Sequence record: MH051917
Origin: Enterobacteria phage vB_EcoM_IME341
Length of the DNA: 64,000 nt
Strand: one strand, 5' to 3'
How positions within the stretch are numbered: position 1 is the first letter of the stretch; every line of letters begins with the position of its first letter. The notes below the pieces were generated by a model. That model was not told the DNA's origin, did no database searches, and saw only the letters and a list, made by a program, of their open reading frames with translations. Below, piece after piece: positions 7,206-60,968 of the stretch. The position numbers were made by a program, and so were the translations under genes.

Positions 7206-7234
7206 TGTTTACAAGGTCTATAGGCATGATACTA
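7206..7234 (+). promoter_or_regulatory. early promoter cassette (GTTTAC -35, 17-bp spacer, TACTAT -10)
   Basis: gtttacaaggtctataggcatgatactatagacctatcaa; spacer contains inverted repeat aggtctatag/ctatagacct. Confidence 0.6.
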
Positions 7235-7272
7235 TAGACCTATCAAAACAAACTAACCAAACGGAAATCAAA

Positions 7273-7497
7273 ATGAAAACTTATCAAGAATTTATTACCG
7301 AAGCTAAAAAACACGAAGACCAACTGCCGGTTGTTACAAAAACCTTTGACGGTTCATTGGCTGATTTTAAAAAAGTCCCTAGTGATAAGCTCGCTAAATT
7401 GACCGGGAGCATCGGCGAAAAAGACGGCAAGGTCACATTTTCTGCTCAAGGCACCGCTAATCTTAAAAAACTTTTGAAAGCCGCTGGCGCTGAATAA
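7273..7497 (+). CDS. internal protein (IP) with capsid-targeting sequence
   Basis: N-terminus MKTYQEFITEAKK; 74 aa. Confidence 0.7.
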   Translation: MKTYQEFITEAKKHEDQLPVVTKTFDGSLADFKKVPSDKLAKLTGSIGEKDGKVTFSAQGTANLKKLLKAAGAE

Positions 7498-7499
7498 AA

Positions 7500-7772
7500 A
7501 TGAAAACATATCAAGAATTTATCGCTGAATCTATTCTTAATGAAGAAGTAAAAATTAACAAATCTGTTAAGACTATGATTGATAATATAAATCATCTCTA
7601 TAACATCGATTTGACTAATCATGTAACTTTAGGCAATAAGCGAAACTTTTTTGTATTTGATACTTCAGAACTCGACCAGAATCAAATTAACAATATTGAA
7701 CGTTTTGCTAATGAAAAAGGGCTGCGTCACGAAACGGCTGGTTATAAAAAGTATGCAATTTATTTAAAATAA
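7500..7772 (+). CDS. internal protein (IP) with capsid-targeting sequence
   Basis: N-terminus MKTYQEFIAESIL; 90 aa; tandem to previous IP. Confidence 0.7.
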   Translation: MKTYQEFIAESILNEEVKINKSVKTMIDNINHLYNIDLTNHVTLGNKRNFFVFDTSELDQNQINNIERFANEKGLRHETAGYKKYAIYLK

Positions 7773-7774
7773 TT

Positions 7775-7804
7775 GTTTACAACGGGCTCTAGTGATGGTA
7801 CTAT
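7775..7804 (+). promoter_or_regulatory. early promoter cassette
   Basis: gtttacaacgggctctagtgatggtactatagccctatcaa. Confidence 0.55.
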
Positions 7805-7840
7805 AGCCCTATCAAAACAAATGAGTGATTGGAGAATAAA

Positions 7841-8026
7841 ATGAAACGTTGTGAATTAATTAGAAATGTTACTGCACTGGCAGCCGTTACTGCTTTTGGC
7901 TTTAGTATGTTTGCAGGATTCATGCTCGATATGCTTTCAACTTCCGAGAATATAATCTCTTTAGTAGTGGCATTTTTAATTGGTTCAATCTCTTTCGTAA
8001 TGGATAAAATCTCTAAAGGTGAATAA
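7841..8026 (+). CDS. small membrane protein
   Basis: 61 aa from ATG after SD GGAG in the cassette 3' end; hydrophobic; ORF-track start 7829 is a TTG inside the shared leader. Confidence 0.55.
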   Translation: MKRCELIRNVTALAAVTAFGFSMFAGFMLDMLSTSENIISLVVAFLIGSISFVMDKISKGE

Positions 8027-8427
8027 TGAACGTTGAATATTATGTATATGCGGATTATGAAAATAACCCGTCTAAAGATGAAGATAACCGTTTAGGTGTT
8101 GATGCTTTTGACTCTCCTGCTGCAGCTTGGCAATGGGTTGAAAGTACTGATATCCCTTATCGTTATATTGAAGTGGTAGACCATGCAGGAAACAAGTATC
8201 CTAAGGAAGCATATATTCCTTCTGGAAAGGTAAATTTCCTTTTGTTCGCCGGTGACAACTATTATCCACGTGGTGGATACACTGACTTAATCGCAAAAGC
8301 TGCTACTGAAGATGAACTACGTAATATCATTAAAGATAACGAGAATAAGCCTTGTTACGGTTCTAATCGTTTTGACTGGTGGCAGATTGTTAATGCCAAT
8401 ACCCACACAATTGTAGACGAGGGTTAA
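8026..8427 (+). CDS. hypothetical protein
   Basis: 133 aa ORF, ATGA overlap with upstream gene. Confidence 0.5.
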   Translation: MNVEYYVYADYENNPSKDEDNRLGVDAFDSPAAAWQWVESTDIPYRYIEVVDHAGNKYPKEAYIPSGKVNFLLFAGDNYYPRGGYTDLIAKAATEDELRNIIKDNENKPCYGSNRFDWWQIVNANTHTIVDEG

Positions 8428-8712
8428 ATGCTATACGTTAAGGTTACTAATCCAGAGAATGGCTATAAATCCGATCAGGTTGCAGCTGAGTTGTTGATTC
8501 GCAATTATGGCAAAGATGCTGTTCTTGATGTTCAACAGGTTAATATAGGACGTAGTTCAAGCGATGTTAAGCTCAAAGTTAACAGCCATCGTTATAATTC
8601 TGTTAACTTTACTTTTTATACCGCAACTGAAAATGGATTGGTCGAATACGACATCTTTAAAAATCCTTTGAAGATTGCTTCTATTAAACTTGATTACATT
8701 AATATGCTTTAA
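8428..8712 (+). CDS. hypothetical protein
   Basis: 94 aa ORF directly abutting previous stop. Confidence 0.5.
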   Translation: MLYVKVTNPENGYKSDQVAAELLIRNYGKDAVLDVQQVNIGRSSSDVKLKVNSHRYNSVNFTFYTATENGLVEYDIFKNPLKIASIKLDYINML

Positions 8713-10962: not shown

Positions 10963-10991
10963 AGGCCCTTCCGAAAGGTTGGGCCTTTTTT
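10963..10991 (+). terminator. intrinsic terminator (duplicate of the 10315 module)
   Basis: aggccc-ttccgaaaggtt-gggcct + TTTTTT; loop identical to 10315 terminator. Confidence 0.65.
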
Positions 10992-11014
10992 GTTTCTAAA
11001 AGTTTAAAAAAGTT

Positions 11015-11043
11015 GTTTACACCTCCTTTAAACATGATACTAT
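11015..11043 (+). promoter_or_regulatory. early promoter cassette
   Basis: gtttacacctcctttaaacatgatactatagacctatcaaaacaa. Confidence 0.6.
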
Positions 11044-11078
11044 AGACCTATCAAAACAACAGAGTGAAGGAGAGTAAA

Positions 11079-11342
11079 ATGGATAATTATGGTGAATTGT
11101 TTAATTTCTTTATGAAATGCGTTCCTGAAGAATTTGGTGCTACTGTTAACGATATTAAGGTTATAGGTGACGACCATCCTATATTTGAAACGTATGCAGT
11201 AATGGGTAATGATGATGGCCAGTGGTATACCGTAAAGGTTGTGGTTAATATGTTTGCCGCCGAAGGTTATGTTAAATTGTCTACCAAAGTTTATCATGAT
11301 AACGATTTTGATGCGGAAGAGTATTTCAATAATATGAAATAA
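11079..11342 (+). CDS. hypothetical protein
   Basis: 87 aa from ATG after SD GGAG; ORF-track start 11064 is GTG in the leader. Confidence 0.5.
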   Translation: MDNYGELFNFFMKCVPEEFGATVNDIKVIGDDHPIFETYAVMGNDDGQWYTVKVVVNMFAAEGYVKLSTKVYHDNDFDAEEYFNNMK

Positions 11343-11344
11343 TT

Positions 11345-11374
11345 GTTTACATGGGCTCATGATTAAGATATTAT
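11345..11374 (+). promoter_or_regulatory. early promoter (GTTTAC / TATTAT) with flanking inverted repeat
   Basis: gtttacatgggctcatgattaagatattatgagcccat; arms atgggctcat / atgagcccat. Confidence 0.5.
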
Positions 11375-11399
11375 GAGCCCATAATTTGAGGAGAACATA

Positions 11400-11798
11400 A
11401 TGAATATCGAAGATAAAGAAATGCAAGAGTTGTACAATTCATTAACGCCTGAACAACAAAAAGCTGCCAAAGAATTAGAGAAAGCTCTTACTTTCAACTT
11501 GGCAAAAACTGATTGGGCTGCCATGTATGAAGAAAAAACTAGATTAGAACTTGAAGCGGTCGAGAGAAATGAATGGATTGTCGAAACCAAGATTTCTGAT
11601 GGTGGTTGCTCTGTTGAGGTGTCAGCTGTAGTTAAAGGTACCCATGGCGAAAAATCATGGGGCTGGCATAATGAGACAAACAAATATATTGTTCTCTCAA
11701 CGTCAAAAACTTATGGCCAAAGGGCTCCTGTATCCAAAGCTATTATTAAGCAAGCTCAATGGGAAGCCAATGAAATCTGCCTCGCAAAAATGAAATAA
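11400..11798 (+). CDS. hypothetical protein
   Basis: 132 aa, SD GAGGAG upstream. Confidence 0.5.
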   Translation: MNIEDKEMQELYNSLTPEQQKAAKELEKALTFNLAKTDWAAMYEEKTRLELEAVERNEWIVETKISDGGCSVEVSAVVKGTHGEKSWGWHNETNKYIVLSTSKTYGQRAPVSKAIIKQAQWEANEICLAKMK

Positions 11799-11801
11799 AA
11801 T

Positions 11802-11831
11802 GTTTACATCCCTCAGAGGACAGGGTATAAT
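11802..11831 (+). promoter_or_regulatory. early promoter (GTTTAC / TATAAT) with inverted repeat
   Basis: gtttacatccctcagaggacagggtataatgtcctc. Confidence 0.55.
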
Positions 11832-11873
11832 GTCCTCATGGATTATAAATCTTAACCAACTGAAGGAAATACT

Positions 11874-12467
11874 ATGAACACTTTAAAGAAAATCGTTGAA
11901 TTCATCCGTTCTAAACTGGGTACTGCAATGGCTCAGAACCTGTCAATCGAAGACCAGTATACTAAAGCTGCTTCTACCCTGATTGATAAAATCACTGAAC
12001 TCCAGACTGCTCATGTTAAGTCTGTGAATGAAGAAAAACGTATTCGGGCGTTGGCTAATGAAAAAGACCAGCTTGCTGCTTCTAAAGAACGTGAAATTCG
12101 TAAACTGATTGCCGAAGGCGCTGATGTCCAGGTACATGCTAAACTCGGCCTCCTTTATCGTCGTACGGCTACTCAGCTTCGTAAGAAAGCCGATGATTAT
12201 ATCGAAATGCGTAATGAAATTAAACTGAAGGTCAAGGAACTTGATGACTCTCGTCAGGAACTGGCTGTTAAGCTCGAGTACATCCGTGAAACTCGTAATA
12301 TGGCTGCCCTTGGTATTGCTACTGCCGATGATGTTGTTGAAATCGCTGCACTGACTAAGATTGATATTGAAGATACCCTGCTGCGTGTAGAAACGTTTAA
12401 AGGCCCACAGGTTGGAATGGATACGACTTCTGCTGATATCGACGACTACATTAATTCACTTAAGTAA
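11874..12467 (+). CDS. coiled-coil protein, tentatively PspA/IM30-like
   Basis: 197 aa, long predicted helices rich in E/K/R/A/L; family assignment not verified. Confidence 0.5.
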
Positions 12468-14888: not shown

Positions 14889-15218
14889 ATGCATAAAGAT
14901 TCAGTATTCAAATATCTTTTGAAAACAGATAAAGAATTCTATATGAATGGGCAAGCCTTCTTGTTCGTTCGTGGTAAACGTGAGATGTTTTACAAATGCG
15001 ACCTCTCAATGCACCATCATATGTATCACACCCATGGCGAGCCTATACTGGGGTTCTCTGGTGACGAAACTAGACGTATAGCTATGTACTACGACCATTT
15101 TAAGCTCAATGATTGTGGTGACAACGCTCTGGTCTGGAATCCATCTTGGCGTCGTTGGGATACGGTAGACAACGATAAATTATTTTTAGAATATTGCAGA
15201 AGTGATGTACAACTCTAA
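14889..15218 (+). CDS. hypothetical His-rich protein
   Basis: 109 aa from ATG after SD AGGAGGA; alternative start 14868. Confidence 0.45.
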   Translation: MHKDSVFKYLLKTDKEFYMNGQAFLFVRGKREMFYKCDLSMHHHMYHTHGEPILGFSGDETRRIAMYYDHFKLNDCGDNALVWNPSWRRWDTVDNDKLFLEYCRSDVQL

Positions 15219-15261
15219 AAATACGTGTTACTATTACCCTACACAAACATGAGGAGAACAT

Positions 15262-15501
15262 ATGTGGTATTACGCTCCGATGTCCGATAAGTCTAATGAA
15301 CCGGTACGCATTACTCGTGCCAAGTTTAAAAAGATTTATGGCTTTGCTTATAAGAAGTCTGATTACGGTGTTCGTTTTGAAGATGCTCACTGTATCAATG
15401 ACCCTTATGCAGAAGAAATTTCTAATGAGATAATTCCTATCGTTGAGAGTAATTCCAATGATATGTGGGAATTGCATAACACTTACGTTGCCGAAATTTA
15501 A
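15262..15501 (+). CDS. hypothetical protein
   Basis: 79 aa, SD GAGGAG upstream. Confidence 0.5.
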   Translation: MWYYAPMSDKSNEPVRITRAKFKKIYGFAYKKSDYGVRFEDAHCINDPYAEEISNEIIPIVESNSNDMWELHNTYVAEI

Positions 15502-15520: not shown

Positions 15521-16480
15521 ATGATGCTAGTTATTGGTTCTCGCGCACTGCACCACGCTGGTCTGATTGAAAATAAGTATATCGAAAATTCTGATTGGGA
15601 TTTCATTGCCGACCAAGGCTCATGGAACCACTTTAAAGCTCGGATGTTCGGCGCCCATGTACACGTTGACAATCCTGATGTTCAGGCTTTCAAATGTATG
15701 CATAATGGTAAAGAAACCTATTTCGAAGCTTATATCGTCCGTGCTCTGACTAACGTACGTGAAATCACTGGTGAGCTCCAAGACGAAGATTTCACCTCAA
15801 GTTATCGTCTCCTGAAATATGCTGAAAATCGTATTAAAAAGGACCGTCTTACAGGTTTCTATTGGGCTACGCCTGATATCTGTCTGGCTATCAAAACCTC
15901 TCATCGTTTCCTGAAGAATAATCCTTTCTTCTTGAAAACTATGTCCCACATCAAATACCTTCGTAATAAAGGTATCACCCTGAATGAAGAACTCCAGGAA
16001 ATTATGCTGCAGCGTCAAAAAGAAACGTTGAGCTATTCCCACCCTAAATTGGATGTAAACAAATCATCGTTCTTTAACGATACCATTTATACGCTAGACC
16101 ACGACTCTATCCATGAAGCCGTGGCATTGGCAGGGCGCCCGGCATATACCTTTTATATGAAGGAAGGTTCTGAAGTCATGACCTCTCGTGAGAAGTTCGA
16201 GGCTTTGCCTGAAGCTATTAAACTGGCTGGTGTATATGAAGAAACTTGTGTCCTGGCACTAGAACGTTCACAGGTTCCTAATGACTTCAATATTTCACCA
16301 TCATTAAGTTTCTATATGGCTCTTGAGAAAGTGTGTACCTCAATCACTTCAGGTTGGTTCCGTGAGTACGCCTGGGAAAACTACCAAGCTGTGGTTAATA
16401 TGTACAAGACTTTAGGTGAAAACGACTACATCAAACGATTCCAAGATAACCATCATTTAATTCGTCCTTTCGAAAAATAA
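15521..16480 (+). CDS. hypothetical protein, possible nucleotidyltransferase-fold N-terminus
   Basis: 320 aa from ATG 15521 (SD GAGGAA); N-terminal GS...DWD resembles a loose Pol-beta NTase motif. Confidence 0.5.
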   Translation: MMLVIGSRALHHAGLIENKYIENSDWDFIADQGSWNHFKARMFGAHVHVDNPDVQAFKCMHNGKETYFEAYIVRALTNVREITGELQDEDFTSSYRLLKYAENRIKKDRLTGFYWATPDICLAIKTSHRFLKNNPFFLKTMSHIKYLRNKGITLNEELQEIMLQRQKETLSYSHPKLDVNKSSFFNDTIYTLDHDSIHEAVALAGRPAYTFYMKEGSEVMTSREKFEALPEAIKLAGVYEETCVLALERSQVPNDFNISPSLSFYMALEKVCTSITSGWFREYAWENYQAVVNMYKTLGENDYIKRFQDNHHLIRPFEK

Positions 16481-16492
16481 TTGCATAAAATT

Positions 16493-16521
16493 GTTTACAA
16501 GGTCTATAGGCATGATACTAT
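16493..16521 (+). promoter_or_regulatory. early promoter cassette
   Basis: gtttacaaggtctataggcatgatactatagacctatcaaaacaa, identical to the 7206 copy. Confidence 0.6.
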
Positions 16522-16558
16522 AGACCTATCAAAACAACAGAGTGAAATGGAGAATAAA

Positions 16559-16771
16559 ATGAAACTTTCTAACCAAGCAATCAACATGTTAAACGAAGTT
16601 CGTGCAGCTGGTGCTAAATGCCTGATGGTTAACACTCGTGACGGTGACCTTCGTCAAGCATTCGGTGAATTGAAATCTGCTGACCTGGTTAAATGTTCAG
16701 TTGGTATCGGTAACGCACTTCGTGTATCCTTATCCCCTAAAGGTAAAATGTACTTTTTCAACAAAAAGTAA
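16559..16771 (+). CDS. hypothetical protein
   Basis: 70 aa from ATG after cassette SD GGAG; ORF-track start 16481 is a TTG inside the promoter. Confidence 0.5.
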   Translation: MKLSNQAINMLNEVRAAGAKCLMVNTRDGDLRQAFGELKSADLVKCSVGIGNALRVSLSPKGKMYFFNKK

Positions 16772-19259: not shown

Positions 19260-19548
19260 TGAATTTATCACTGAAGCCCGCGTAACCGCAGGTAAATTAG
19301 AAGCCGCTGTAAATAAAAAGGCCCATTCATTTCATGATTTGCCAGATAAAGACCGTAAGAAACTTGTAAGCCTTTATATTGACAAAGAGCGTATTCTCGC
19401 TCTCCCGGGCGCTAATGAAGGTAAACAGGCCAAGCCTTTGAATTCTGTCGAAAAGAAAATTGATAACTTTGCTTCTAAGTTTGGTATGTCTATGGATGAC
19501 CTTCAGCAAGCGGCTACCGAAGCAGCTAAAGCAATTAAAGGTAAATAA
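19246..19548 (+). CDS. internal protein (ipII/ipIII-like) with capsid-targeting sequence
   Basis: N-terminus [13 protein letters not shown]; 100 aa; between e and denV where T4 has ipIII/ipII. Confidence 0.7.
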
Positions 19549-19551
19549 CAG

Positions 19552-19580
19552 TTTACTTTTACAATAGCTGTGATATAGTG
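19552..19580 (+). promoter_or_regulatory. early promoter (GTTTAC / TATAGT)
   Basis: gtttacttttacaatagctgtgatatagt; downstream inverted repeat gtgttctc/gagaacac covers the denV SD. Confidence 0.45.
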
Positions 19581-19608
19581 TTCTCACACAAACATGGAGA
19601 ACACTAAA

Positions 19609-20025
19609 ATGACTCGTATTAACCTTACCTTAGTATCTGAATTGGCCGACCAACACTTAATGGCTGAATATCGCGAATTACCACGTGTTTTCGGTGCAGT
19701 TCGTAAGCATGTTGCTAATGGTAAACGTGTTCGTGATTTTAAAATTAGCTCTACTTTTATCCTTGGTACCGGCCATGTTACTTTCTTTTATGATAAGCTT
19801 GAATTTTTACGTAAACGTCAAATCGAGCTTATAGCCGAATGTTTAAAACGTGGTTTTAATATCAAGGACACTACGGTCCAAGACATTAGTGATATTCCTC
19901 AGGAATTCCGTGGTGACTATACTCCACACGAAGCTTCTATTGCTATATCTCAGGCCCGTTTGGACGAAAAAATTGCACAGCGTCCTACCTGGTACAAACA
20001 TTATGGCAAGGCTATTTACGCTTAA
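19609..20025 (+). CDS. denV: endonuclease V, pyrimidine dimer DNA glycosylase
   Basis: [35 protein letters not shown]... nearly identical to T4 endo V; ORF-track start 19594 is an upstream in-frame ATG. Confidence 0.95.
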
Positions 20026-20067
20026 TTAAATCCGTGATAGAATACTTCTATCAACTTAAGGAATAAT

Positions 20068-20367
20068 ATGAAAACTTATCAAGAATTTATTACAGAAGCC
20101 AAAGCTCCTAAAGCATTTCAAATTGGAGTTCAAGGCAATTTAGACCAAGAATATGTTGATGCTATTGTAGCAAGCCTCGGTAAACAGGGTGTACAAGTGG
20201 ATTTTGTTGATTTTACCAAAGGTAATACTTTTAATATTGTTACATCTAAAGGTTCTTTAGCTAAAGTTAAAAAGGCCTTTGGCGTAGCACAAGCATATGA
20301 AATCGACCACTCCGAATTGGAAAATAAAGGTCGCCAGAACACAATTAAAGGTTCTGGTTCTTTCTAA
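20068..20367 (+). CDS. internal-protein-like protein with capsid-targeting sequence
   Basis: N-terminus MKTYQEFITEAKAP; 99 aa. Confidence 0.65.
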   Translation: MKTYQEFITEAKAPKAFQIGVQGNLDQEYVDAIVASLGKQGVQVDFVDFTKGNTFNIVTSKGSLAKVKKAFGVAQAYEIDHSELENKGRQNTIKGSGSF

Positions 20368-21834: not shown

Positions 21835-22043
21835 TGAAAATTGAAAGTTTACAAGATTTCCAGCGTATCATTGGTGAAGCCTGTACCGGCTACCACAAAT
21901 ACTTGCTTGACGACCAAATGGCTTGTCTCGAAGAAGGTGAAGTACAGTATGCAGCCCAACGCCTTGAACAAGTGAAAGAGTTTTATCCTGTATTGGTAGA
22001 AATTTGTTCAGCTGCTGGAAAACTTACCCCATTCCAAGAATAA
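21834..22043 (+). CDS. hypothetical protein
   Basis: 69 aa from ATG overlapping previous TGA. Confidence 0.45.
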   Translation: MKIESLQDFQRIIGEACTGYHKYLLDDQMACLEEGEVQYAAQRLEQVKEFYPVLVEICSAAGKLTPFQE

Positions 22044-22047
22044 AGCA

Positions 22048-22076
22048 GTTTACATCTCCTGTAGACATGATACTAT
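22048..22076 (+). promoter_or_regulatory. early promoter cassette with RBS-sequestering inverted repeat
   Basis: gtttacatctcctgtagacatgatactataaacctatcaactacaggag; arms ctcctgtag / ctacaggag (SD in 3' arm). Confidence 0.6.
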
Positions 22077-22104
22077 AAACCTATCAACTACAGGAGATTA
22101 CAAA

Positions 22105-22563
22105 ATGTCAGAAATTAATTCAGAAGTATTCATCCGCCGCAACAAATTACGTCGTCAGTTCGAAACCGAATTCCGTGAACTGAATGCGTCCATCAAAAAA
22201 GCCGCCATTAAGAGCGGTGTCCCAGCCTTCTTTATTAAGTACTCTAATCACTTGTTGGACCGTGCTATCCAACGTGAAATCGACGAAAAATACGTTTTTG
22301 CTTTATTCAAGCAACTCCATAACCATGTTAAAGAAATCCACGAATTCTTAATCCAGGAACCTCTGCCTGATGTAGAATCCGAAATTGTCCCTGGTAAAGT
22401 GTATCGTCCATTGCGTCTCGAAATTACCGATAAAACCTTATGGCTAGGTATGACAGTAGACCGTAAACATCCTGATAAAGGATATTCCCTTAAATGTCGT
22501 ATGGCATTTGTTAACTCTAAACGTTTAGAAGGTAAAACCAGCACTAAAGTAATCTATCTTTAA
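22105..22563 (+). CDS. hypothetical protein
   Basis: 152 aa after cassette. Confidence 0.5.
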   Translation: MSEINSEVFIRRNKLRRQFETEFRELNASIKKAAIKSGVPAFFIKYSNHLLDRAIQREIDEKYVFALFKQLHNHVKEIHEFLIQEPLPDVESEIVPGKVYRPLRLEITDKTLWLGMTVDRKHPDKGYSLKCRMAFVNSKRLEGKTSTKVIYL

Positions 22564-25926: not shown

Positions 25927-25930
25927 TCAA

Positions 25931-25957
25931 AGGTCTCACTTCGGTGGGACCTTTTTT
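25931..25957 (+). terminator. intrinsic terminator
   Basis: aggtctcac-ttcg-gtgggacct + TTTTTT. Confidence 0.7.
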
Positions 25958-25966
25958 CGTTTAGGT

Positions 25967-25995
25967 GTTTACATCCTCTAGGAACATGATACTAT
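25967..25995 (+). promoter_or_regulatory. early promoter cassette
   Basis: gtttacatcctctaggaacatgatactatagacctatcaactaatgagg. Confidence 0.6.
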
Positions 25996-26023
25996 AGACC
26001 TATCAACTAATGAGGAAAACAGT

Positions 26024-48966: not shown

Positions 48967-51678
48967 ATGCAAGAATTCTATTTGACAGTCGAACAAATCG
49001 GTGATAATATTCTCGAACGTTACATCGATAAAAATGGTAACGAACGTAGTCGTGAAGTTCCTTACAAGCCCACAATGTTTATGCATGCCAATCCAGAGCA
49101 AGCCGTAAAATACATTGATATCTATGGTAAGGGTTGTGTTAAGAAAGAATTCGACTCTATGCGCGATGCATCCCAATGGATGAAACGTATGGACGATATG
49201 GGTCTCGAAGCCCTGGGTATGGACGACTATAAATTAGCCTATTTGTCTGATACCTATCGTAAAGAAATCAGGTATGATTCTTCTAAGATTCGTATTGCTA
49301 ACTTCGACATCGAGGTAACATCTCCTGATGGATTCCCTGAACCAGCTCAGGCTAAACATCCTATCGATGCCATTACCCACTACGACTCGATTGACGATAA
49401 ATTCTATGTATTCGACCTTTTAGTTTCGCCTTATGGTACCGTCGAAGAGTGGTCGATTAAAATCGCTGAGAAACTCCAAGAAGAAGGTGGTGACGAAGTT
49501 CCACAAGAAATCATTGACAAAATCGTTTATCTTCCGTTTAATTCCGAAGAAGAAATGATGCTTGAGTATCTGAATTTCTGGCAACAGAAAACTCCTGTGA
49601 TTTTGACTGGATGGAACGTTGAGTCGTTTGACGTACCATACGTTTATAACCGTCTGAAAAATCTGTTTGGTGAGAACACTGCTAAGCGATTAAGCCCGCA
49701 TCGTAAGACTCGTGTTAAAGTTATCGAGAACATGTACGGTGCTCGTGAAATTATTACATTGTTCGGTATCTCTGTTCTAGATTATATCGACCTGTATAAA
49801 AAATTCAGCTTTACCAACCAGCCTTCTTATTCTCTGGATTATGTTTCTGAATATGAATTGAAAGTAGGTAAGTTGAAATATGATGGTCCAATCTCCAAGT
49901 TACGTGAGACTAACCACCAACGATATATTTCCTATAACATTATCGACGTATATCGTGTAGTGCAGATTGATATGAAACGCCAGTTCATTCTTTTGAGTTT
50001 GGACATGGGTTATTATGCTAAGATGCAGATTCAGTCGGTGTTCAGTCCAATTAAGACTTGGGATGCTATTATCTTTAATAGCCTTAAAGAACAAGGCAAG
50101 GTCATTCCGCAGGGTCGTTCACACGTGGTCCAACCTTATCCTGGTGCTTTCGTTAAGGAACCTATTCCTAACGCTTACAAATATGTAATGAGTTTCGACC
50201 TTACATCTCTGTACCCGAGTATCATTCGACAAGTGAATATAAGCCCAGAGACCATCGCAGGGACATTCGCTAACGCACCTATACATGAATATATTGCCGG
50301 AACAGCTCCGCGTCCTAGCGACACCTACAGTTGCTCTCCTAACGGCATGATGTACTATAAAGACCGTGAAGGTGTGATTCCGACAGAAATCACTAAGGTG
50401 TTCTTACAACGTAAAGAACATAAAGGTTATATGCTTGCAGCCCAACGTAATGGTGAGTTAATTAAAGAAGCATTAGAAAATCCTAATCTCTCGGTTGATA
50501 GTCCACTGGATATCGATTATCGTTTTGACTTCTCTGACGAAATCAAAGCCCAGATTAAAGCACTGTCAGCGCCTTCTTTAAGAGAAATGTTGAAGAAAGC
50601 CGAGCTCACTGAAGTTGCAGGTAATACGGCTCAGATTAACCGTAAGTTGCTTATCAACTCCCTTTATGGTGCACTTGGTAACGTATGGTTCCGTTACTAC
50701 GACCTCAGGAACGCAACTGCAATCACACTGTTTGGTCAAATGGCCCTCCAATGGATTGAACGTAAGGTTAACGAATATCTGAATAGCGTGTGTAAGACTG
50801 AAAACCAGAAGTTCGTGCTCTATGGTGATACTGACTCCATTTATGTTAAGGCAGATGCAATCATCAATAAAGTAGGTGAAGATAAATTCCGTGACACTAA
50901 CCACTGGGTCGACTTCTTAGATAAATTTGCACGTGAACGTATGGAACCGGCTATTGATGCAGGCTTCCGTGAGATGTGCGAGTACATGAACAACAAACAA
51001 CACTTGATGTTCATGGACCGAGAAGCTATCGCAGGTCCTCCACTTGGTTCTAAAGGTCTTGGTGGATTCTGGACAGGCAAGAAACGTTATGCACTGAACG
51101 TTTGGGACATGGAAGGTACTCGTTATGCCGAACCACACTTGAAAATCATGGGCCTTGAAACTCAGAAATCAAGTACGCCTAAAGCGGTTCAGAAAGCTCT
51201 GAAAGAATGTATCCGTCGTATGCTTCAGGAAGGCGAGGCCTCTTTGCAAGAATATTTCAAACAGTTTAATAAGGAATTTAACGAACTAAACTATGTAAGC
51301 ATTGCAGCAGTATCCAGTGCTAACAACATTGAGAAATATAACGAAGGCGGATTCCCTGGTTCTAAATGCCCGTACCATATCAAAGGTTGCTTAGCTTACA
51401 TGCGTGCTTCTGCAGGTGATTTGACTATGCCTCGTATCGTTGATGGTGAAAAGGTATATGTACTGCCACTTAAAGAAGGCAACCCGTTTGGTGAAGCCTG
51501 TATGGCATGGCCGTCAGGTATTGAACTTCCAGTTCAGATTCGTGACCAAGTCCTCCGTTGGATGGACTACAACGTACTGTTCCAAAAGACCTTTATCAAG
51601 CCTCTGACTGGTTTTACTGAGTCCGCTAAAATCGACTACGAGAAAAAAGCAACATTATTTGATATGTTCGACTTTTAA
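48967..51678 (+). CDS. 43: gp43 DNA polymerase (family B)
   Basis: 903 aa; MQEFYLTVEQIGDNILERYID..., exo and pol motifs (FDIE, YGDTDS); ORF-track start 48907 is upstream. Confidence 0.95.
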   Translation: MQEFYLTVEQIGDNILERYIDKNGNERSREVPYKPTMFMHANPEQAVKYIDIYGKGCVKKEFDSMRDASQWMKRMDDMGLEALGMDDYKLAYLSDTYRKEIRYDSSKIRIANFDIEVTSPDGFPEPAQAKHPIDAITHYDSIDDKFYVFDLLVSPYGTVEEWSIKIAEKLQEEGGDEVPQEIIDKIVYLPFNSEEEMMLEYLNFWQQKTPVILTGWNVESFDVPYVYNRLKNLFGENTAKRLSPHRKTRVKVIENMYGAREIITLFGISVLDYIDLYKKFSFTNQPSYSLDYVSEYELKVGKLKYDGPISKLRETNHQRYISYNIIDVYRVVQIDMKRQFILLSLDMGYYAKMQIQSVFSPIKTWDAIIFNSLKEQGKVIPQGRSHVVQPYPGAFVKEPIPNAYKYVMSFDLTSLYPSIIRQVNISPETIAGTFANAPIHEYIAGTAPRPSDTYSCSPNGMMYYKDREGVIPTEITKVFLQRKEHKGYMLAAQRNGELIKEALENPNLSVDSPLDIDYRFDFSDEIKAQIKALSAPSLREMLKKAELTEVAGNTAQINRKLLINSLYGALGNVWFRYYDLRNATAITLFGQMALQWIERKVNEYLNSVCKTENQKFVLYGDTDSIYVKADAIINKVGEDKFRDTNHWVDFLDKFARERMEPAIDAGFREMCEYMNNKQHLMFMDREAIAGPPLGSKGLGGFWTGKKRYALNVWDMEGTRYAEPHLKIMGLETQKSSTPKAVQKALKECIRRMLQEGEASLQEYFKQFNKEFNELNYVSIAAVSSANNIEKYNEGGFPGSKCPYHIKGCLAYMRASAGDLTMPRIVDGEKVYVLPLKEGNPFGEACMAWPSGIELPVQIRDQVLRWMDYNVLFQKTFIKPLTGFTESAKIDYEKKATLFDMFDF

Positions 51679-51680
51679 GT

Positions 51681-51710
51681 GTTTACATACCACAAGGAAC
51701 GTGGTAGTAT
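51681..51710 (+). promoter_or_regulatory. early promoter (GTTTAC / TAGTAT) with inverted repeat
   Basis: gtttacataccacaaggaacgtggtagtat. Confidence 0.5.
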
Positions 51711-51741
51711 CCTTCCTATCAACTACTTAGAGGAAATTACA

Positions 51742-51978
51742 ATGGAAGCTTTAATCGTTAGTGCTGGTGTTTTAGGATTTGGTTCTCTGGTTATTATGTT
51801 CATCGGTTACTTTTTACCATGGATTTTAGCTCTTCTGCGAGGCACTCGTAGTAATGTAGGAATTTTCTTCCTTAATCTCCTGTTGGGTTGGACGATGATT
51901 GGTTGGGTAGTGGCTTTAATCTGGGCTATCGTCGCTGAACGTAAATCAAACGCACAAATCATTATCGTTAAGCAATGA
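51742..51978 (+). CDS. superinfection immunity (Imm)-like membrane protein
   Basis: 78 aa, two TM helices; directly after gene 43 where T4 has imm. Confidence 0.55.
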   Translation: MEALIVSAGVLGFGSLVIMFIGYFLPWILALLRGTRSNVGIFFLNLLLGWTMIGWVVALIWAIVAERKSNAQIIIVKQ

Positions 51979-58537: not shown

Positions 58538-59961
58538 AAACTATTTTGGCTCAACTGCTAGGCAATAGTGATTATTTCACTAAGGTCTGGCCTTATATGA
58601 ATGATTCATATTTTGACCAGGGTCCTGCAAAGACCCTTTTCAAAGAAATTAAAAAACACGTCAATGAATATAATGCAGTGCCTTCTAAGAACGCATTGAG
58701 CATTGCATTAGATAACAGTACGCTTTCAGAAGTTGAACATCAAGGCGCTAAAGAGCTTTTAAGCTCACTGAATGCTGGACCTGAAGACCAAGAATGGTTG
58801 GTTAAAGAGACGGAGAAATACGTTCAGAAAGCAGCGATGTATAATGCAACTTCAAAAATCATTGAAATCCAAACTAATGCCGACCTTCCGGTTGAGCAAC
58901 AAAATAGAAAACTTCCAGGTATTGGTGCTATTCCAGATATCATGCGTGATGCATTATCGATTTGTTTCGATTCTGAATTAGGTCATGACTGGATGGATGA
59001 CTATGAAGAACGATTCAAAAGTTATTCCGATAAAGCACGTAAGGTTCCATTCCGTCTTAATATTCTGAATAAGATTACCAAGGGCGGTGCTGAGTTTGGT
59101 ACTGAAAACGTATTGTTGGCAGGAACAAACGTAGGTAAGTCTCTTGGGCTGTGTTCATTGGCTGCTGATTACCTTCAATCCGGATACGATGTTCTTTATA
59201 TCTCCATGGAGATGGCAGAGGAAGTATGTGCTAAGCGTATCGATGCCAACCTTCTGGATGTATCACTGGATGATATCGATGATGGTCACGTCTCTTGGCC
59301 TGAATATAAAGCTAAGATGGATAAATGGCGTTCAACTGCTACTTTAGGTCGTTTAAAGATTAAACAGTATCCTACCGGTGGTGCTAATGCCGATACATTC
59401 CGAGCATTATTAAACGAATACAAGCTCAAACAAAACTTTGTCCCACAGGTCGTTATCGTCGACTACTTGGCCATCTGTGCATCATCTCGTACGAAAGTTT
59501 TCTCTGAAAACAGTTATGGATTGATTAAGATGGTAGCCGAAGAACTACGTGGACTTGCAGTAGAGAAGAAATTATTGTTGTGGACTGCAGCCCAGACTAC
59601 TCGTGGTGCGAACGTTGCCGCCGAAATCGATATGGCTGATATTGCTGAATCCTTTGGTATTGCACATACTGCCGACTTCATGTTGGGTGTGGTCGAGACA
59701 GAAGAGTTTGCCCAGATGGGTATGCAGATGGTTAAGCAGCTTAAATCTCGTTATGGCGATAAGAGCTACTACAACAAATTTAAGATTGGTGTTAAGAAAG
59801 GAAATCAACGTTGGTACGAAGTTGAAGATGATTCCAATCCGGGTCCAGTGAACACTGTTCGTGAGGCTACAGGTGAGATGAATCGTCAAGCCGAGGTCAA
59901 TCGACAGACGCGTGTTAATAGAAGTGATTTGGATGATTTAGCAGCATCTATCAAATTTTAA
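58531..59961 (+). CDS. 41: gp41 replicative DNA helicase
   Basis: DnaB-like Walker A GTNVGKSLG; likely GTG start (MVETILAQLL) after SD GAGGTGG. Confidence 0.9.
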   Translation: MVETILAQLLGNSDYFTKVWPYMNDSYFDQGPAKTLFKEIKKHVNEYNAVPSKNALSIALDNSTLSEVEHQGAKELLSSLNAGPEDQEWLVKETEKYVQKAAMYNATSKIIEIQTNADLPVEQQNRKLPGIGAIPDIMRDALSICFDSELGHDWMDDYEERFKSYSDKARKVPFRLNILNKITKGGAEFGTENVLLAGTNVGKSLGLCSLAADYLQSGYDVLYISMEMAEEVCAKRIDANLLDVSLDDIDDGHVSWPEYKAKMDKWRSTATLGRLKIKQYPTGGANADTFRALLNEYKLKQNFVPQVVIVDYLAICASSRTKVFSENSYGLIKMVAEELRGLAVEKKLLLWTAAQTTRGANVAAEIDMADIAESFGIAHTADFMLGVVETEEFAQMGMQMVKQLKSRYGDKSYYNKFKIGVKKGNQRWYEVEDDSNPGPVNTVREATGEMNRQAEVNRQTRVNRSDLDDLAASIKF

Positions 59962-59982
59962 GGAGCTTCGGCTCCTTTTTTG
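59960..59982 (+). terminator. intrinsic terminator after gene 41
   Basis: aggagc-ttcg-gctcct + TTTTTT. Confidence 0.7.
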
Positions 59983-59990
59983 TTTTAAGG

Positions 59991-60019
59991 GTTTACATCT
60001 CCTGTAGGCGTGATACTAT
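59991..60019 (+). promoter_or_regulatory. early promoter cassette
   Basis: gtttacatctcctgtaggcgtgatactatagacctatcaacttggag. Confidence 0.6.
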
Positions 60020-60043
60020 AGACCTATCAACTTGGAGAACAAA

Positions 60044-60361
60044 ATGAAAACCATCGACTGTAAAGCAGAATATAAAGTGTATTACCACGGAAGTTGTAGT
60101 GTTGCTAATATCGGTAATATGCTTTGTCCTCCTGAGGAAACAGGAGTTCTGTCTGAAACTGGTCGTAAGAAAAACCTGAATCGTGTGTTCTTTACTGAAG
60201 ATATCGGTTTGGCTAAGATTTATGCTGGACGTGCAGCTCGTTCAGTGGGAGGAGAACCTCGTCTTTATCGTGTAATTGCTCCGGTAGATGTGGTTTGTTT
60301 AAATGATACTAAAGGCGCTACGGTTTATCATGCTGAATGGGCCTTCTGTGAGGAAATCTAA
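60044..60361 (+). CDS. hypothetical protein
   Basis: 105 aa from ATG after cassette SD. Confidence 0.5.
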   Translation: MKTIDCKAEYKVYYHGSCSVANIGNMLCPPEETGVLSETGRKKNLNRVFFTEDIGLAKIYAGRAARSVGGEPRLYRVIAPVDVVCLNDTKGATVYHAEWAFCEEI

Positions 60362-60556
60362 ATGTCTGAATCAATTAAAGTAAAATTTGTCGGCCATTTC
60401 ACCAACGGCGATACCGCTACCAAAGAAGCTTCAGTGCGTGAAAACGATATCGTGTGGGTGACTACCCAATTCGCTGAAGTCAATAATATTTTGGTTAAGG
60501 CGTATGTCGACGATGTAGAAGTTTATGAACATGATGCCCGTATTGAGGAAATCTAA
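60362..60556 (+). CDS. dmd: Dmd, antitoxin against RnlA/LsoA
   Basis: 64 aa; VWVTTQFAEVNNILVKAYVDD resembles T4 Dmd (61.5); position between genes 41 and 61. Confidence 0.65.
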   Translation: MSESIKVKFVGHFTNGDTATKEASVRENDIVWVTTQFAEVNNILVKAYVDDVEVYEHDARIEEI

Positions 60557-60697
60557 ATGGAAGAATTTGAATGTGTAGTATGTGGTTGTTCGGTCTGTGA
60601 AGACCAGGCAGTATTTGATGCTTGGGACAACGCAACCTGTTTAGACTGTGACAGCGAATTCGAAGAAATTGCTCATAAACATGAAGGCGAGGAATAA
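60557..60697 (+). CDS. possible small zinc-ribbon protein
   Basis: 46 aa, CVVCGC...CLDC. Confidence 0.4.
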   Translation: MEEFECVVCGCSVCEDQAVFDAWDNATCLDCDSEFEEIAHKHEGEE

Positions 60698-60937
60698 ATG
60701 AATATCGTACTAATGAAACCAACTCCTAGCTCTTTTTGGAATAAATCTTTCGGTAAGCATAATATGTTTATCCACCGCACTGTAAGCAACTGGGAACTGG
60801 TTCTTTCAGTGGGCCACAACGATTATGAACAAGAATACGTAGAGTTCTTCGAATTTCCTGTGAAGCCTACTAAGCGTCAGATTCGTCAGACAAAACGTAA
60901 ATTCCGTAAGATTTATTTGGAAGATTCGTTAAAATAA
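60698..60937 (+). CDS. hypothetical protein
   Basis: 79 aa. Confidence 0.45.
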   Translation: MNIVLMKPTPSSFWNKSFGKHNMFIHRTVSNWELVLSVGHNDYEQEYVEFFEFPVKPTKRQIRQTKRKFRKIYLEDSLK

Positions 60938-60938
60938 A

Positions 60939-60968
60939 GTTTACAACGGTCTATGGTAGTGATACTAT
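60939..60968 (+). promoter_or_regulatory. early promoter cassette
   Basis: gtttacaacggtctatggtagtgatactatagacctatcaactaacgagg. Confidence 0.6.

Follow-up and report, generated by a model that had tools for sequence, protein, structure and literature searches.

PeSL-type early-promoter cassettes of a Dhakavirus and a possible role of their RNA stems on read-through transcripts

T4-type phages are known to carry promoter-early stem-loop (PeSL) elements (Arbiol et al. 2010, PMC2839356; Comeau et al. 2014, PMC4122927), and mini-circles formed by recombination between PeSL copies have been documented in RB49 and phi1 (PMC2839356). For the JS98/Dhakavirus group the literature offers a single remark on such elements, concerning the gene 43 region. 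A second described arrangement is the RBS-sequestering leader of the T4 genes e, soc, 49 and I-TevI (Uzan and Miller 2010, PMC3014915). A third relevant system is the RegB nuclease, whose target consensus in T4 early mRNAs is GG*AGRAYARAA (PMC3014915, PMC1702504) and whose sites are protected by secondary structure (PMC3014915).

The DNA analyzed here (the window, a whole stretch of 64,000 nucleotides from Enterobacteria phage vB_EcoM_IME341, MH051917) is that of a Dhakavirus, a JS98/IME08-like T4-type coliphage, and its + strand carries 21-22 early-promoter cassettes, promoter-plus-leader modules of 55-60 bp. In motif counts, GTTTAC-N16-19-TAYWAT was matched 16 times versus 0.23 expected, and AGACCTATCAA with no more than one mismatch 12 times versus 1.27 expected, all on the + strand. 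Searching with a profile of 10 copies identified 11 strong ones, at E values from 1e-8 to 1e-17; their -35 elements lie at 7207, 7775, 11015, 16493, 22048, 25967, 29227, 29561, 30962, 59991 and 60939. Roughly ten weaker, promoter-like and diverged copies are found at 11345, 11802, 19551, 20014, 33525, 36071, 38322, 39026, 39449 and 51681, and one more weak copy, absent from the first-pass annotation, at 15205. The latter had described about 20 near-identical copies; the number stands, but near-identity fits only 11 of them, the other ten or so being diverged. The location is intergenic for 19-20 cassettes and intragenic for two (36071 and 39026). Their 3' end is formed by the SD and start codon of the downstream gene, they are situated in variable early regions, and the genes that follow are unrelated to each other (internal proteins, regB, denV, nrdC.x, 55.x, imm, sp).

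Each module runs from an AT-rich UP-like stretch through the -35, an extended -10 (TGnTACTAT) and a conserved discriminator/start region AGACCT-ATCAAC to the leader, SD and ATG. The AT fraction of the 25 nt upstream of the cassettes is 0.70-0.73 versus 0.61 window-wide, with an A-run consensus at -40 to -44; this AT-rich part is missing in 36071 and 39026. The putative promoter reads, at the sequence level, (G)TTTACA, a 16-17 nt spacer, TGn and TACTAT/TATAAT; the -35/-10 pair reported earlier is present, but the spacing given for it has to be replaced by the sigma-70 register TTTACA, 16 nt, TGn, TACTAT. The start site predicted by geometry lies 7 nt after the -10, and the leader is short and unstructured, with an SD of the GGAG type. 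The 11 near-identical copies are alike over some 55 nt and share the invariant block TGATACTATAGACCTATCAA, 20 consecutive positions each conserved in at least 80% of them; their mean pairwise identity is 0.95 over the 10 nt from the -10 onward versus 0.25-0.4 in the flanks. The multiple alignment that had been proposed as a check thus extends the similarity well past the hexamers. Also as suspected, the shared N-termini MENKMK and MHKIVYKV are artifacts of ORF extension through the SD or the UP element (e.g. ATGGAGAATAAAATGAAA at 16544 and a TTG start at 16481).

A stem of -10 kcal/mol or lower between the promoter spacer and downstream sequence is present in 14 of 21 cassettes. In class A, the 3' arm comprises the -10 and discriminator and terminates at the predicted start site; in class B, to which roughly a third of the copies belong, it is the SD that forms the 3' arm. 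All inverted repeats quoted in the first-pass annotation were recovered where it had placed them, and the 5' arm lies, by geometry, in the promoter spacer, so that RNA from the cassette's own promoter would be devoid of it, as had been claimed. The individual cassettes are as follows.

7182..7275, + strand: cassette upstream of an internal virion protein gene (PHROG); -35 at 7207, -10 at 7230, predicted start at ~7242, ATG at 7273; class A stem 7213-7224 / 7231-7242, AGGTCTATAG/CTATAGACCT, read-through fold -17.9 kcal/mol, z -4.2
7750..7843, + strand: cassette upstream of trna.4; class A stem 7783-7795 / 7799-7810, GGGCTCTAG/CTATAGCCC; SD GGAGAATAAAA, a perfect RegB-consensus match
10990..11081, + strand: cassette upstream of e.8 (11015); class B stem 11020-11037 / 11059-11076, CCTCCTT/AAGGAGAG; terminator-like hairpin and T run just before
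11320..11402, + strand: diverged cassette with a TATTAT -10; class A stem 11350-11364 / 11369-11383, ATGGGCTCATGAT/ATTATGAGCCCAT, -20.5 kcal/mol, z -4.1
11777..11876, + strand: diverged cassette upstream of e.6, TATAAT; class A stem 11807-11823 / 11830-11844, GAGGACA/TGTCCTC, with the compensated pair GAGGGCA/TGCCCTC in ESCO10
15205..15264, + strand: weak extra cassette; ATGTAC -35, TACTAT -10, ATG at 15262
16468..16561, + strand: cassette upstream of an orf115-like gene; class A stem 16499-16510 / 16517-16528; SD a perfect RegB-consensus match
19526..19611, + strand: cassette upstream of denV; class B2 stem, 5' arm 19575-19585 (overlapping the -10 end and discriminator), 3' arm 19596-19607 (containing the SD), GTGTTCTC/GAGAACAC
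20014..20070, + strand: weak promoter-like copy (ATTTAC, TAGAAT) overlapping the denV end and preceding the gene for an internal head protein; spacer-to-downstream duplex search without a significant stem
22023..22107, + strand: cassette upstream of regB; class B stem 22053-22070 / 22083-22099, ATCTCCTGTAG/CTACAGGAGAT, SD sequestered
25929..26026, + strand: cassette with -35 at 25967; intrinsic terminator 25929-25954 and T run ahead; class B stem weak and interrupted
29185..29306, + strand: cassette with -35 at 29227, upstream of an 84-aa ORFan (29304-29558); intrinsic terminator 29185-29202 ahead; no stem in the spacer-to-downstream duplex search
29536..29629, + strand: variant cassette (GTGTAC, TATTAT) upstream of nrdC.10; -35 at 29561
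30937..31019, + strand: cassette upstream of nrdC.8; class B stem 30967-30984 / 30997-31013, TCTCCAGTAG/CTACTGGAGG
33500..33583, + strand: diverged cassette upstream of nrdC.4; TATAAT, CTATCAAC retained; the stem extends to the SD but is interrupted
36071..36143, + strand: promoter-like match within the 49.1 coding sequence, upstream of a pin-like gene; no strong stem, doubtful member
38297..38382, + strand: diverged cassette upstream of 55.6; class B stem 38331-38344 / 38361-38375, CTCCTCACGTGTT/AACACATGAGGAG, z -3.9; pairing kept in VR5 and ESCO10 via two G.U pairs
39026..39119, + strand: promoter-like match within the 55.5 coding sequence, upstream of 55.4; doubtful member
39424..39520, + strand: diverged cassette upstream of 55.2, TATAAT; class A stem 39458-39470 / 39477-39490, GGGACCA/TGGTCCT, with the compensated pair GGGAGCA/TGCTCCT in a relative
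51656..51744, + strand: diverged cassette directly following gene 43 and preceding an imm-like (superinfection immunity) gene; stem weak
59950..60046, + strand: cassette with -35 at 59991; terminator-like hairpin GGAGCTTCGGCTCC and T run ahead; truncated class B stem TCTCC/GGAGA; SD a perfect RegB-consensus match
60914..60999, + strand: cassette upstream of spackle (sp); class A stem 60947-60959 / 60963-60974, GGTCTATGGTAG/TACTATAGACC

The mean spacer-to-downstream duplex energy, -11.6 kcal/mol, compares with -7.8 kcal/mol for cross-paired cassettes (p=1e-3) and -6.0 kcal/mol with shuffled spacers (p=7e-6), p-values that are inflated because the copies compared are kin (orthologues and paralogues of one another). 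In a larger set of about 150 unique cassette copies from related phages, stems were present in 92/150 versus ~22/150 with shuffled spacers, with 38 distinct arm pairs in class A and 31 in class B. Eight variable pairs flanking the CTCC/GGAG core are paired in 74% of cases versus 59% in shuffled sets (0 of 500 shuffles as high), and the covariation score at these flanks reaches 0.324, versus 0.103 in shuffled sets and 0.04-0.12 in slid controls. In 10.7% of cases the cassette's own spacer contains an exact reverse complement of its discriminator hexamer, involving 12 different hexamers, versus 0.65% upon cross-pairing. The class B design is conserved upstream of regB in Dhakavirus, CC31-like and three other groups. 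It also precedes denV in several T4-like genera, where it comes in two architectures and more than 10 different arm sequences. T4 itself has the same SD-pairing design at regB (-24.1 kcal/mol) and at denV; the sequence preceding T4 denV shares 96-100% identity with the class B cassette. Overall, the controls, the covariation, which is strong in both classes, and the conservation across genera establish that the stems are real and under selection; in each cassette, compensating mutations maintain the pairing that the spacer forms with the -10 region or the RBS.

These data bear on the possibility that the cassettes are independent strong sigma-70 early promoters held at a selected optimum, with their identity and stems arising as side effects of promoter and SD. 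Such a view could appeal to the consensus of T4 early promoters, known beyond the -35, TGn and -10 elements (PMC2988021), and the anti-SD-like CTCC of the spacer and the GGAG of the SD might each plausibly be constrained separately. Yet the variable positions beside CTCC/GGAG covary, and the discriminator hexamers differ between copies, each being matched in its own spacer. Moreover, whole cassettes of 44-60 nt are common to unrelated genes (regB and denV; the first 44 nt of cassette 16493 are identical to cassette 7207), and hybrid cassettes (see below) reflect actual exchange, all of which makes this explanation highly improbable.

The reading we favor, and hold to be somewhat better than even, is that the cassettes are self-contained immediate-early expression modules with a superimposed sense-strand RNA stem acting on read-through RNA; the genes are probably handled differently on read-through RNA and on RNA from their own promoter. 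The stem overlies the putative promoter, and its 5' arm is always upstream of the predicted start, so that it would form in read-through RNA only. Read-through folds have z of -3.9 to -4.6 and own-start leaders z of ~0: the regB cassette gives -19.8 kcal/mol (z -4.6) versus -1.4 (z 0.2) for its own leader, and the nrdC.8 cassette -22.5 kcal/mol (z -4.2) versus -2.2 (z 0.4). The probability that the SD is unpaired is 0.21 in read-through RNA versus 0.85 in the own transcript for e.8 (11015), 0.02 versus 0.54 for denV (19551), 0.01 versus 0.47 for regB (22048), 0.31 versus 0.68 for nrdC.4 (33525) and 0.01 versus 0.83 for 55.6 (38322). A clear SD switch is predicted for 11015, 19551, 22048, 38322 and 59991, and a partial one for 30962 and 33525. 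The first-pass proposal that the RBS is hidden in read-through RNA is therefore borne out by folding for the SD-pairing class, about 6-7 of 21 cassettes, but not for class A; no RBS pairing in read-through RNA is predicted for the other 14 of 21, and over all 21 SD accessibility in this RNA does not differ from shuffled-spacer controls (0.34 versus 0.36).

For class B, read-through RNA would be translationally silent at the downstream gene and shielded from RegB at GGAG, whereas on own-promoter RNA the SD would be free and accessible to ribosomes and RegB alike; expression of the gene would therefore be tied to its own, short-lived early promoter. GGAG is present in 15 of 22 cassette SDs, and when sites in the window are ranked by their match to the RegB consensus (GGAGRAYARAA), cassette SDs take the first six places. 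Taken further, this suggests a promoter-gated switch of Tevenvirinae in which the spacer encodes an anti-SD arm, read-through RNA is untranslatable and RegB-resistant, and own-promoter RNA is translated and then killed by RegB, with regB, denV, nrdC.8, 55.6, e.8 and others as its gene set; we put the chances of this version, gene set included, a little short of even. If true, it would restrict these proteins to the opening minutes of an infection despite continued transcription, explain the escape of some intergenic GGAG sites from RegB, and represent an arrangement overlooked even in T4, at regB and denV. Class A needs an explanation other than RBS hiding, because a stem overlapping the -10 leaves the RBS free. 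Most likely it would serve as an intercistronic hairpin on read-through RNA, a 3' stabilizer of the upstream cistron or an attenuator, the last being what was proposed for PeSLs.

Strong stems occur in 1 of 25 cassettes with a preceding intrinsic terminator versus 57% of the others (p=7e-5, inflated likewise by the kinship of the copies); in the window, separate true intrinsic terminators stand upstream of 25967 and 29227. From their near-absence behind intrinsic terminators, the stems appear to act on read-through RNA, although this complementary distribution suits an attenuator role just as well. As canonical Rho-independent terminators the in-promoter stems were rejected: a GC hairpin followed by a U run is not found among them, none has a trailing U/T run, and the sequence after them is ATCAAAAC, ATCAAC or GGAGAUUAC. 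A broader version, in which the stems are terminators or attenuators of upstream transcription, each gene is driven mainly by its own promoter and the RBS pairing of class B is incidental, has in its favor that one RB49 stem-loop cuts downstream lacZ as strongly as the rrnB T1 terminator (Arbiol 2010, PMC2839356), that stems and canonical terminators are almost mutually exclusive, as interchangeable devices would be, and that class A stems lie ~20 nt past the upstream stop codon, clear of the SD. We nevertheless regard it as unlikely: besides the missing U runs, class B loops differ from those of intrinsic terminators in being ~25-30 nt long and taking in the -10 and start region entirely; where termination is evidently called for, the phage has textbook GC hairpins with T runs; and the class B 3' arm is precisely the SD across many lineages despite differing arm sequences.

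Comparison with related phages, which had been suggested as a synteny check, revealed hybrid cassettes and swaps. Three clean cassette-by-cassette deletions left hybrid cassettes (29227 x 29561, 11015 x 11345 and 11015 x 11802); for example, the cassettes at 29227 and 29561 flank the ORFan, and IME08 and VR5 have a hybrid of the two in its place. Cassettes were swapped at denV and e.6, and several were replaced as a whole. On the other hand, 27 of 164 indel breakpoints fall within cassettes (overall range 16-22%), no excess over the gene-boundary expectation, since cassettes make up an estimated 18% or so of gene boundaries. Thus, of the mobile shuffling cassette proposed earlier, the exchange events are found but a preference over other gene boundaries is not. 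The three deletions are consistent with the published PeSL shuffling model, and with ~55 nt in common the modules could serve as homologous exchange sites at which gene cassettes are deleted, inserted or swapped.

The inverted repeats might instead act as DNA, namely as recombination-prone cruciforms or hairpins (e.g. endonuclease VII substrates), as operators for dimeric proteins, or be mutational by-products of template switching devoid of any function in RNA. Template switching can yield matched arm changes without selection, as in T4 quasi-palindrome mutagenesis, which favors this interpretation. Several indel and replacement junctions are marked by cassettes, hybrid cassettes exist, and the RB49 and phi1 mini-circles (PMC2839356) point the same way. 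However, the arm sequences vary freely with pairing kept, contrary to a sequence-specific protein site, and G.U outnumbers A.C on the sense strand (45 versus 16 in all stems; 26 versus 5 in class A alone, with no significant excess in class B, 11 versus 8), as would not be expected of a symmetric duplex-DNA structure. Class B loops of 25-30 nt would make poor cruciforms, cassette breakpoints are no commoner than expected, and the loss of stems specifically where a terminator blocks upstream RNA is a dependence on transcription that a DNA-level role does not predict. We consider such a role improbable and retain the stem acting on read-through RNA.

With respect to RegB, the presence of regB itself under a class B cassette fits the known autoregulation of RegB at its own SD, although the known sites depend on the SD alone; by analogy with the published protection by structure, the spacer-SD pairing may protect against RegB.

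Like the e, soc, 49 and I-TevI leaders, in which a helix conceals the SD and/or AUG in RNA from upstream, the cassettes at 11015, 19551, 22048, 30962, 38322 and 59991, and partly 33525, are predicted to pair SD/AUG in such RNA. In both cases the promoter lies in or before the 5' arm, and own transcripts, lacking that arm, are translated in T4 and would be translatable here; for the cassettes, a start within or after the 5' arm holds by geometry at the predicted site. The promoter embedded in the T4 leaders is, however, a late one (TATAAATA, gp55), giving translation that is off early and on late, whereas the cassettes embed early sigma-70 promoters and only gene e in the window has the classic late-promoter sequestering form (18735-18768). 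The cassette effect would be to limit translation to promoter-proximal early RNA, a benefit less obvious than for late genes because early read-through and own-promoter RNAs coexist.

The resemblance to PeSLs noted at first pass holds for promoter, stem, SD/ATG and location. Both are intergenic repeated composites of an AT-rich region, a strong sigma-70-type early promoter (putative in the cassettes), stem-loop, SD and ATG, located in variable early regions and adjoining small ORFs of unknown function. The cassette promoters agree with the T4/PST consensus TTTACW-N17-TAYWAT. As in class A, the PeSL stem either overlaps the -10 or is placed between it and the -35, and G.T pairs occur within stems. 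Recombination between copies, which deletes or swaps genes in PeSL-bearing phages, may do so here as well. The published subclasses differ in placing the whole stem-loop around the promoter, without long-range spacer-SD pairing, the PST/T4 stems being drawn upstream of the promoter; their published role is termination or attenuation, with translation nowhere mentioned, while canonical terminators are separate elements in this phage. Overall, the cassettes belong to the known PeSL family, and their SD-pairing subclass, of which we found no earlier description, would by analogy carry the e/soc/49/I-TevI logic over to early promoters.

By its sequence, the stretch belongs to a T4-type coliphage in the genus Dhakavirus (JS98/IME08 group), a kind of phage used for therapy. 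Among public records it matches IME08 best (∼98% identity across 80% of a query of 24.5 kb); none identical to it was found with this query. Early transcription runs along the + strand, where comparison with the annotations of IME08 and JS98 gives the gene order 4, 2, 3, 1, 57A/B, internal proteins and tRNAs, followed by e.x, e, denV, vs.x, regB, tk, rI and nrdC.x, and then by 49, nrdH, 55.x, 55, a-gt, 47 and 46. Judging from the T4 gene order and ORF sizes, the genes downstream of 46 would be 45, 44, 62, regA, 43, an imm-like gene, uvsX, 41 and sp. An Rfam scan of the whole window revealed no known RNA family at the repeated promoter cassettes analyzed here and only two tRNAs:

9243-9319, tRNA-Met
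10010-10084, tRNA-Arg

Between them lies an ORF of 223 aa (9376-10047), at a place occupied by tRNA-Asn in IME08 and JS98; it shows a weak, sub-threshold Pfam match to phage endonuclease I and may represent an inserted nuclease gene.

The first-pass annotation proposed that some 20 near-identical copies of an early-promoter cassette (-35, spacer, -10, SD and ATG) precede unrelated genes. The repetition itself is beyond chance: the pattern GTTTAC-N16-19-TAYWAT has 16 matches in the window (0.23 expected) and AGACCTATCAA, with at most one mismatch, has 12 (1.27 expected), both sets being confined to the + strand. Ten copies served to build a profile, which recovered 11 strong copies (E 1e-8 to 1e-17), to which the claim of near-identity applies; the other ∼10 are weaker. 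Two of the weaker ones (36071 and 39026; cassettes are named here by the window coordinate of the -35 element) are treated as doubtful, being located within coding sequence and having no AT-rich UP stretch in front of the -35. Nor is the similarity limited to the promoter hexamers, as the consensus of the strong copies, caTGATACTATAGACCTATCAA, includes an unbroken run of 20 positions, each conserved in at least 80% of them. Their mean pairwise identity rises from ∼0.25 at distances of at least 50 nt upstream through 0.4 in the AT-rich stretch and 0.6 over the -35 and spacer to 0.95 in the -10 and the following 4 nt, and then falls to 0.83 over the next 10 nt and 0.3-0.4 beyond, a stepwise profile that defines a module of ∼55-60 nt with sharp edges. 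Its sigma-70 register (TTTACA, 16 nt, TGn, TACTAT) agrees with the T4/PST early consensus given by Comeau et al. 2014 (PMC4122927), and the predicted start is the A of CTATCAAC, 6-8 nt 3′ of TACTAT. Overall, the cassettes are very probably early promoter modules. Two of them (7207-7250 and 16493-16536) have the same 44 nt, which comprise both spacer and stem, and precede unrelated genes, one for an internal virion protein and the other orf115-like. A further weak cassette-like promoter was observed outside the copies matched by the GTTTAC pattern:

15205-15264, + strand, promoter with ATGTAC as -35, TACTAT as -10 and GAGGAG as SD

The cassettes also account for spurious N-terminal extensions in public Dhakavirus records. 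As suspected in the first-pass annotation, the shared N-termini of mechanically called ORFs are artefacts, the ATG-GAG-AAT-AAA-ATG of the SD region extending the reading frames, and TTG or ATG codons of the UP element lengthen them likewise. The same extensions appear in public annotation, where regB measures 552 nt in IME08 (NC_014260) vs. 459 nt in JS98. The annotated start of IME08_gp115 falls within the UP element; both this start and that of IME08 regB are probably mis-called.

The inverted repeats noted in many copies were assessed by pairing each spacer with the segment from -10 to ATG of the same cassette. For the 21 cassettes the mean energy of this own pairing was -11.6 kcal/mol, compared with -7.8 kcal/mol when spacers were combined with the downstream segments of other cassettes (p=1e-3) and -6.0 kcal/mol with shuffled spacers (p=7e-6). 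The repeats are therefore real, with a stem of -10 kcal/mol or better in 14 of the 21. They fall into two classes by the position of the 3′ arm (all on the + strand):

Class A, 3′ arm formed by the -10 and discriminator and ending at the predicted start: 7207, 7775, 11345, 11802, 16493, 39449, 60939 and, weakly, 51681
Class B, 3′ arm formed by the SD: 22048, 30962, 38322, 11015 and, weaker, 25967, 59991, 33525
Listed with class B: 19551 (denV), with a 5′ arm made up of the discriminator and the last bases of the -10

Read-through RNA, which originates upstream and retains the 5′ arm, folds with z-scores of -3.9 to -4.6, whereas leaders beginning at the predicted own start are unstructured (z∼0).

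Evidence that this pairing is under selection came from 150-168 unique cassettes collected from five annotated Dhakavirus loci and IMG/VR stretches. A stem is present in 92 of 150 unique cassettes (∼22 of 150 with shuffled spacers), and the arms vary widely yet stay complementary, the distinct arm pairs numbering 38 in class A and 31 in class B. Compensatory changes are seen between orthologues of e.6 (GAGGACA/TGTCCTC to GAGGGCA/TGCCCTC) and 55.2 (GGGACCA/TGGTCCT to GGGAGCA/TGCTCCT), and wobble-preserving changes between those of 55.6 (CTCCTCACGTGTT to CTCCTTGTGTGTT) and nrdC.8 (an A-to-G change yielding G.U). Since arm lengths and registers in the regB leaders differ too much across genera for an RNAalifold-type alignment, class B was aligned by its CTCC and GGAG cores only, leaving the flanks unselected (40 distinct rows). 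At the eight variable pairs 74% of cells are paired vs. 59% after shuffling (0 of 500 shuffles as high), and the covariation score reaches 0.324 (0.103 after shuffling, 0.04-0.12 when the partners are slid). Class A was assessed through its discriminator hexamer, whose exact reverse complement is found in the cassette's own spacer in 10.7% of cases, compared with 0.65% for hexamers of other cassettes; 12 different hexamers are involved. As the copies are related, the p-values are optimistic. Stronger arguments are the slid-partner control, which preserves this relatedness, and how many independent arm sequences there are.

The palindromes could in principle be read as protein operators in duplex DNA. 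Their arms, however, vary with compensation, and the interior non-Watson-Crick positions are dominated by G.U (45, with 16 A.C; 28 and 33, respectively, after shuffling), in class A alone by 26 to 5. This asymmetry points to a structure of the sense strand, that is, RNA or sense single-stranded DNA, and argues against a duplex palindrome, so that the operator reading was rejected. An interpretation of the stems as intrinsic terminators was likewise discarded for want of U runs. Genuine intrinsic terminators do exist in the window, two being confirmed by a terminator scan:

25929-25954, intrinsic terminator
29185-29202, intrinsic terminator

Of 25 cassettes with a canonical intrinsic terminator within ∼40 nt upstream, only one has a strong stem, vs. 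57% of 154 others (p=7e-5), suggesting that the stems are relevant to RNA coming from upstream. At the strongest class B stems (regB, nrdC.8, 55.6, denV) the upstream stop codon adjoins the -35, without a terminator. Taken together, we consider it likely that the stems have been selected as structures of the sense strand and act on read-through RNA. The near-exclusion between terminators and stems, by itself, fits silencing and attenuation of read-through RNA alike. For class A stems, any specific role, be it as stabiliser or as attenuator, can be proposed only with low confidence.

The first-pass annotation suggested that the hairpin hides the ribosome-binding site in read-through RNA and that RNA from the cassette's own promoter is translatable. 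The accessibility of the SD core was computed by partition function for both RNAs.

Cassettes with a clear switch in SD accessibility (read-through RNA, then RNA from the predicted own start)
11015: 0.21, 0.85
19551: 0.02, 0.54
22048: 0.01, 0.47
38322: 0.01, 0.83
59991: 0.14, 0.79

A partial switch was found for 30962 and 33525, and none in the remaining 14 cassettes. Over all 21, accessibility in read-through RNA (0.34) does not differ from that with shuffled spacers (0.36), which eliminates the notion that cassettes in general hide their RBS. Sequestration is thus predicted for about one third of the copies but is not a family-wide property. Class B may well work by translational silencing, with or without shielding from the RegB nuclease. 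Such a recurrent SD-pairing subclass would tie the translation of a gene to the origin of its transcript, offering a mechanism for the tight and brief expression of regulators such as RegB.

The link to RegB derives from its specificity: it cleaves GG*AG within SDs of early mRNAs, with GGAGRAYARAA as the strong-site consensus, and secondary structure shields from cleavage (Uzan and Miller 2010, PMC3014915). According to the same review, the early promoter of regB is off after 2-3 min and regB is autoregulated at its own SD. On the + strand of the window this consensus has three perfect and three one-mismatch matches, and all six are cassette SDs:

GGAGRAYARAA sites with 0-1 mismatch, + strand: cassettes 7775, 16493, 59991, 11015, 11345, 29561

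GGAG itself is present in 15 of 22 cassette SDs. The module thus resembles a full immediate-early unit, with a strong promoter, an unstructured leader and a RegB-cleavable SD. Class B pairing would shield this SD from RegB in read-through RNA, a possible explanation for the long-noted RegB resistance of some GGAG sites.

To assess conservation beyond Dhakavirus, we compared the regions upstream of regB in 17 viral contigs (Dhakavirus, a group like Enterobacter phage CC31, and three more with 59-69% RegB identity). Each group shows spacer-to-SD and/or spacer-to-(-10) pairing by different sequences, in some cases with the -10 stem enclosed by an outer SD stem. Upstream of denV, the SD is paired in nearly all of ∼38 T4-like contigs, by more than 10 different arm sequences and in two architectures, with the 5′ arm either directly after the -35 or composed of the last bases of the -10 together with the discriminator. 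In T4 itself (promoters of regB, denV and ipII read from NC_000866, 62.7-65.8 kb), the regB spacer TTTTCCTCTTGACTG pairs with CAGTTAAGAGGAGAA (MFE -24.1 kcal/mol), sequestering GAGGAG; the denV cassette is that of Dhakavirus regB and denV (ATCTCCTGTAG...CTACAGGAGA); and ipII carries a 14-bp stem that resembles class A and follows the -10. An IMG/VR scan had suggested that the exact cassette is genus-specific, which is refuted by its presence upstream of denV in T4 and relatives. Overall, the SD-pairing subclass is conserved by covariation across T4-like genera, T4 included.

The cassettes were also thought to be mobile and to mediate gene shuffling. Synteny comparison of the window with IME08, JS10, JS98, VR5 and ESCO10 revealed three clean cassette-by-cassette events, each leaving a hybrid cassette. 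(In the ESCO10 record, OM386655, product names look displaced relative to genes, e.g. the gp3 homologue is labelled 'terminase large subunit' and a 46.2-like ORF 'MotA'.) An 84-aa ORFan (29304-29558), for which neither PHROG nor Pfam gave a match, lies between cassettes 29227 and 29561 and is missing from IME08 and VR5, where the 5′ half of one cassette is joined to the 3′ half of the other; it is a typical gene gained or lost through such recombination. In JS10, e.8 is absent and the junction falls between the 11015 and 11345 leaders; in VR5, the gene after e.8 is missing too, and the junction is between 11015 and 11802. Whole modules are swapped as well, with three cassette versions for denV and two for e.6 among Dhakaviruses, and the T4-JS98 homology around denV (92% in the CDS) stops at the left edge of the cassette. 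Hybrid cassettes thus mark gene gain and loss in Dhakavirus genome evolution. Cassette footprints, 3.9% of the sequence, contain 27 of 164 indel breakpoints, events shared between genomes entering this count more than once. Compared with random sequence this is a 4-fold excess, but there is none over the gene-boundary expectation, with cassettes at ∼18% of gene boundaries by a rough estimate. Cassettes appear to be used for exchange, but a preference for them over other gene junctions is not upheld.

With respect to known systems, the suggested resemblance to the promoter-early stem-loop (PeSL) elements of T4-type phages is supported: the published description (PMC2839356, PMC4122927) shares the AT-rich region, early promoter, SD and ATG, a stem-loop that either covers the -10 or lies between it and the -35, and a location in variable early regions. 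Recombination between copies also belongs to that description and is suggested here by the hybrid cassettes. As a family the cassettes belong to PeSL, and the feature is genuine and well supported. On the other hand, the five published subclasses lack SD pairing, both papers regard the stem as a terminator or attenuator, the 2010 paper by Arbiol (PMC2839356) makes no mention of translation or ribosomes, and JS98 appears solely in connection with PeSL-like sequences close to gene 43. The literature searched contains no description of RBS sequestration at early promoters or of JS98 early promoters, a mention in subscription literature being possible. The SD-pairing subclass thus appears to be a variant, not spelled out before, of a known regulatory principle, and the PeSL modules of T4-type phages would be more than a promoter and a terminator, with stems selected at the RNA level. 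Class B follows the logic known from the T4 genes e, soc, 49 and I-TevI, whose 5′ arm harbours a late promoter (PMC3014915), the embedded promoter being early here and late there. The window itself carries this classic T4 form at gene e (lysozyme, 18765-19259), where, in the arrangement at 18735-18768, the late promoter TATAAATA (18735-18742) overlaps the 5′ arm ACCTCC and the 3′ arm is the SD GGAGGT, the design principle of class B with a late promoter.
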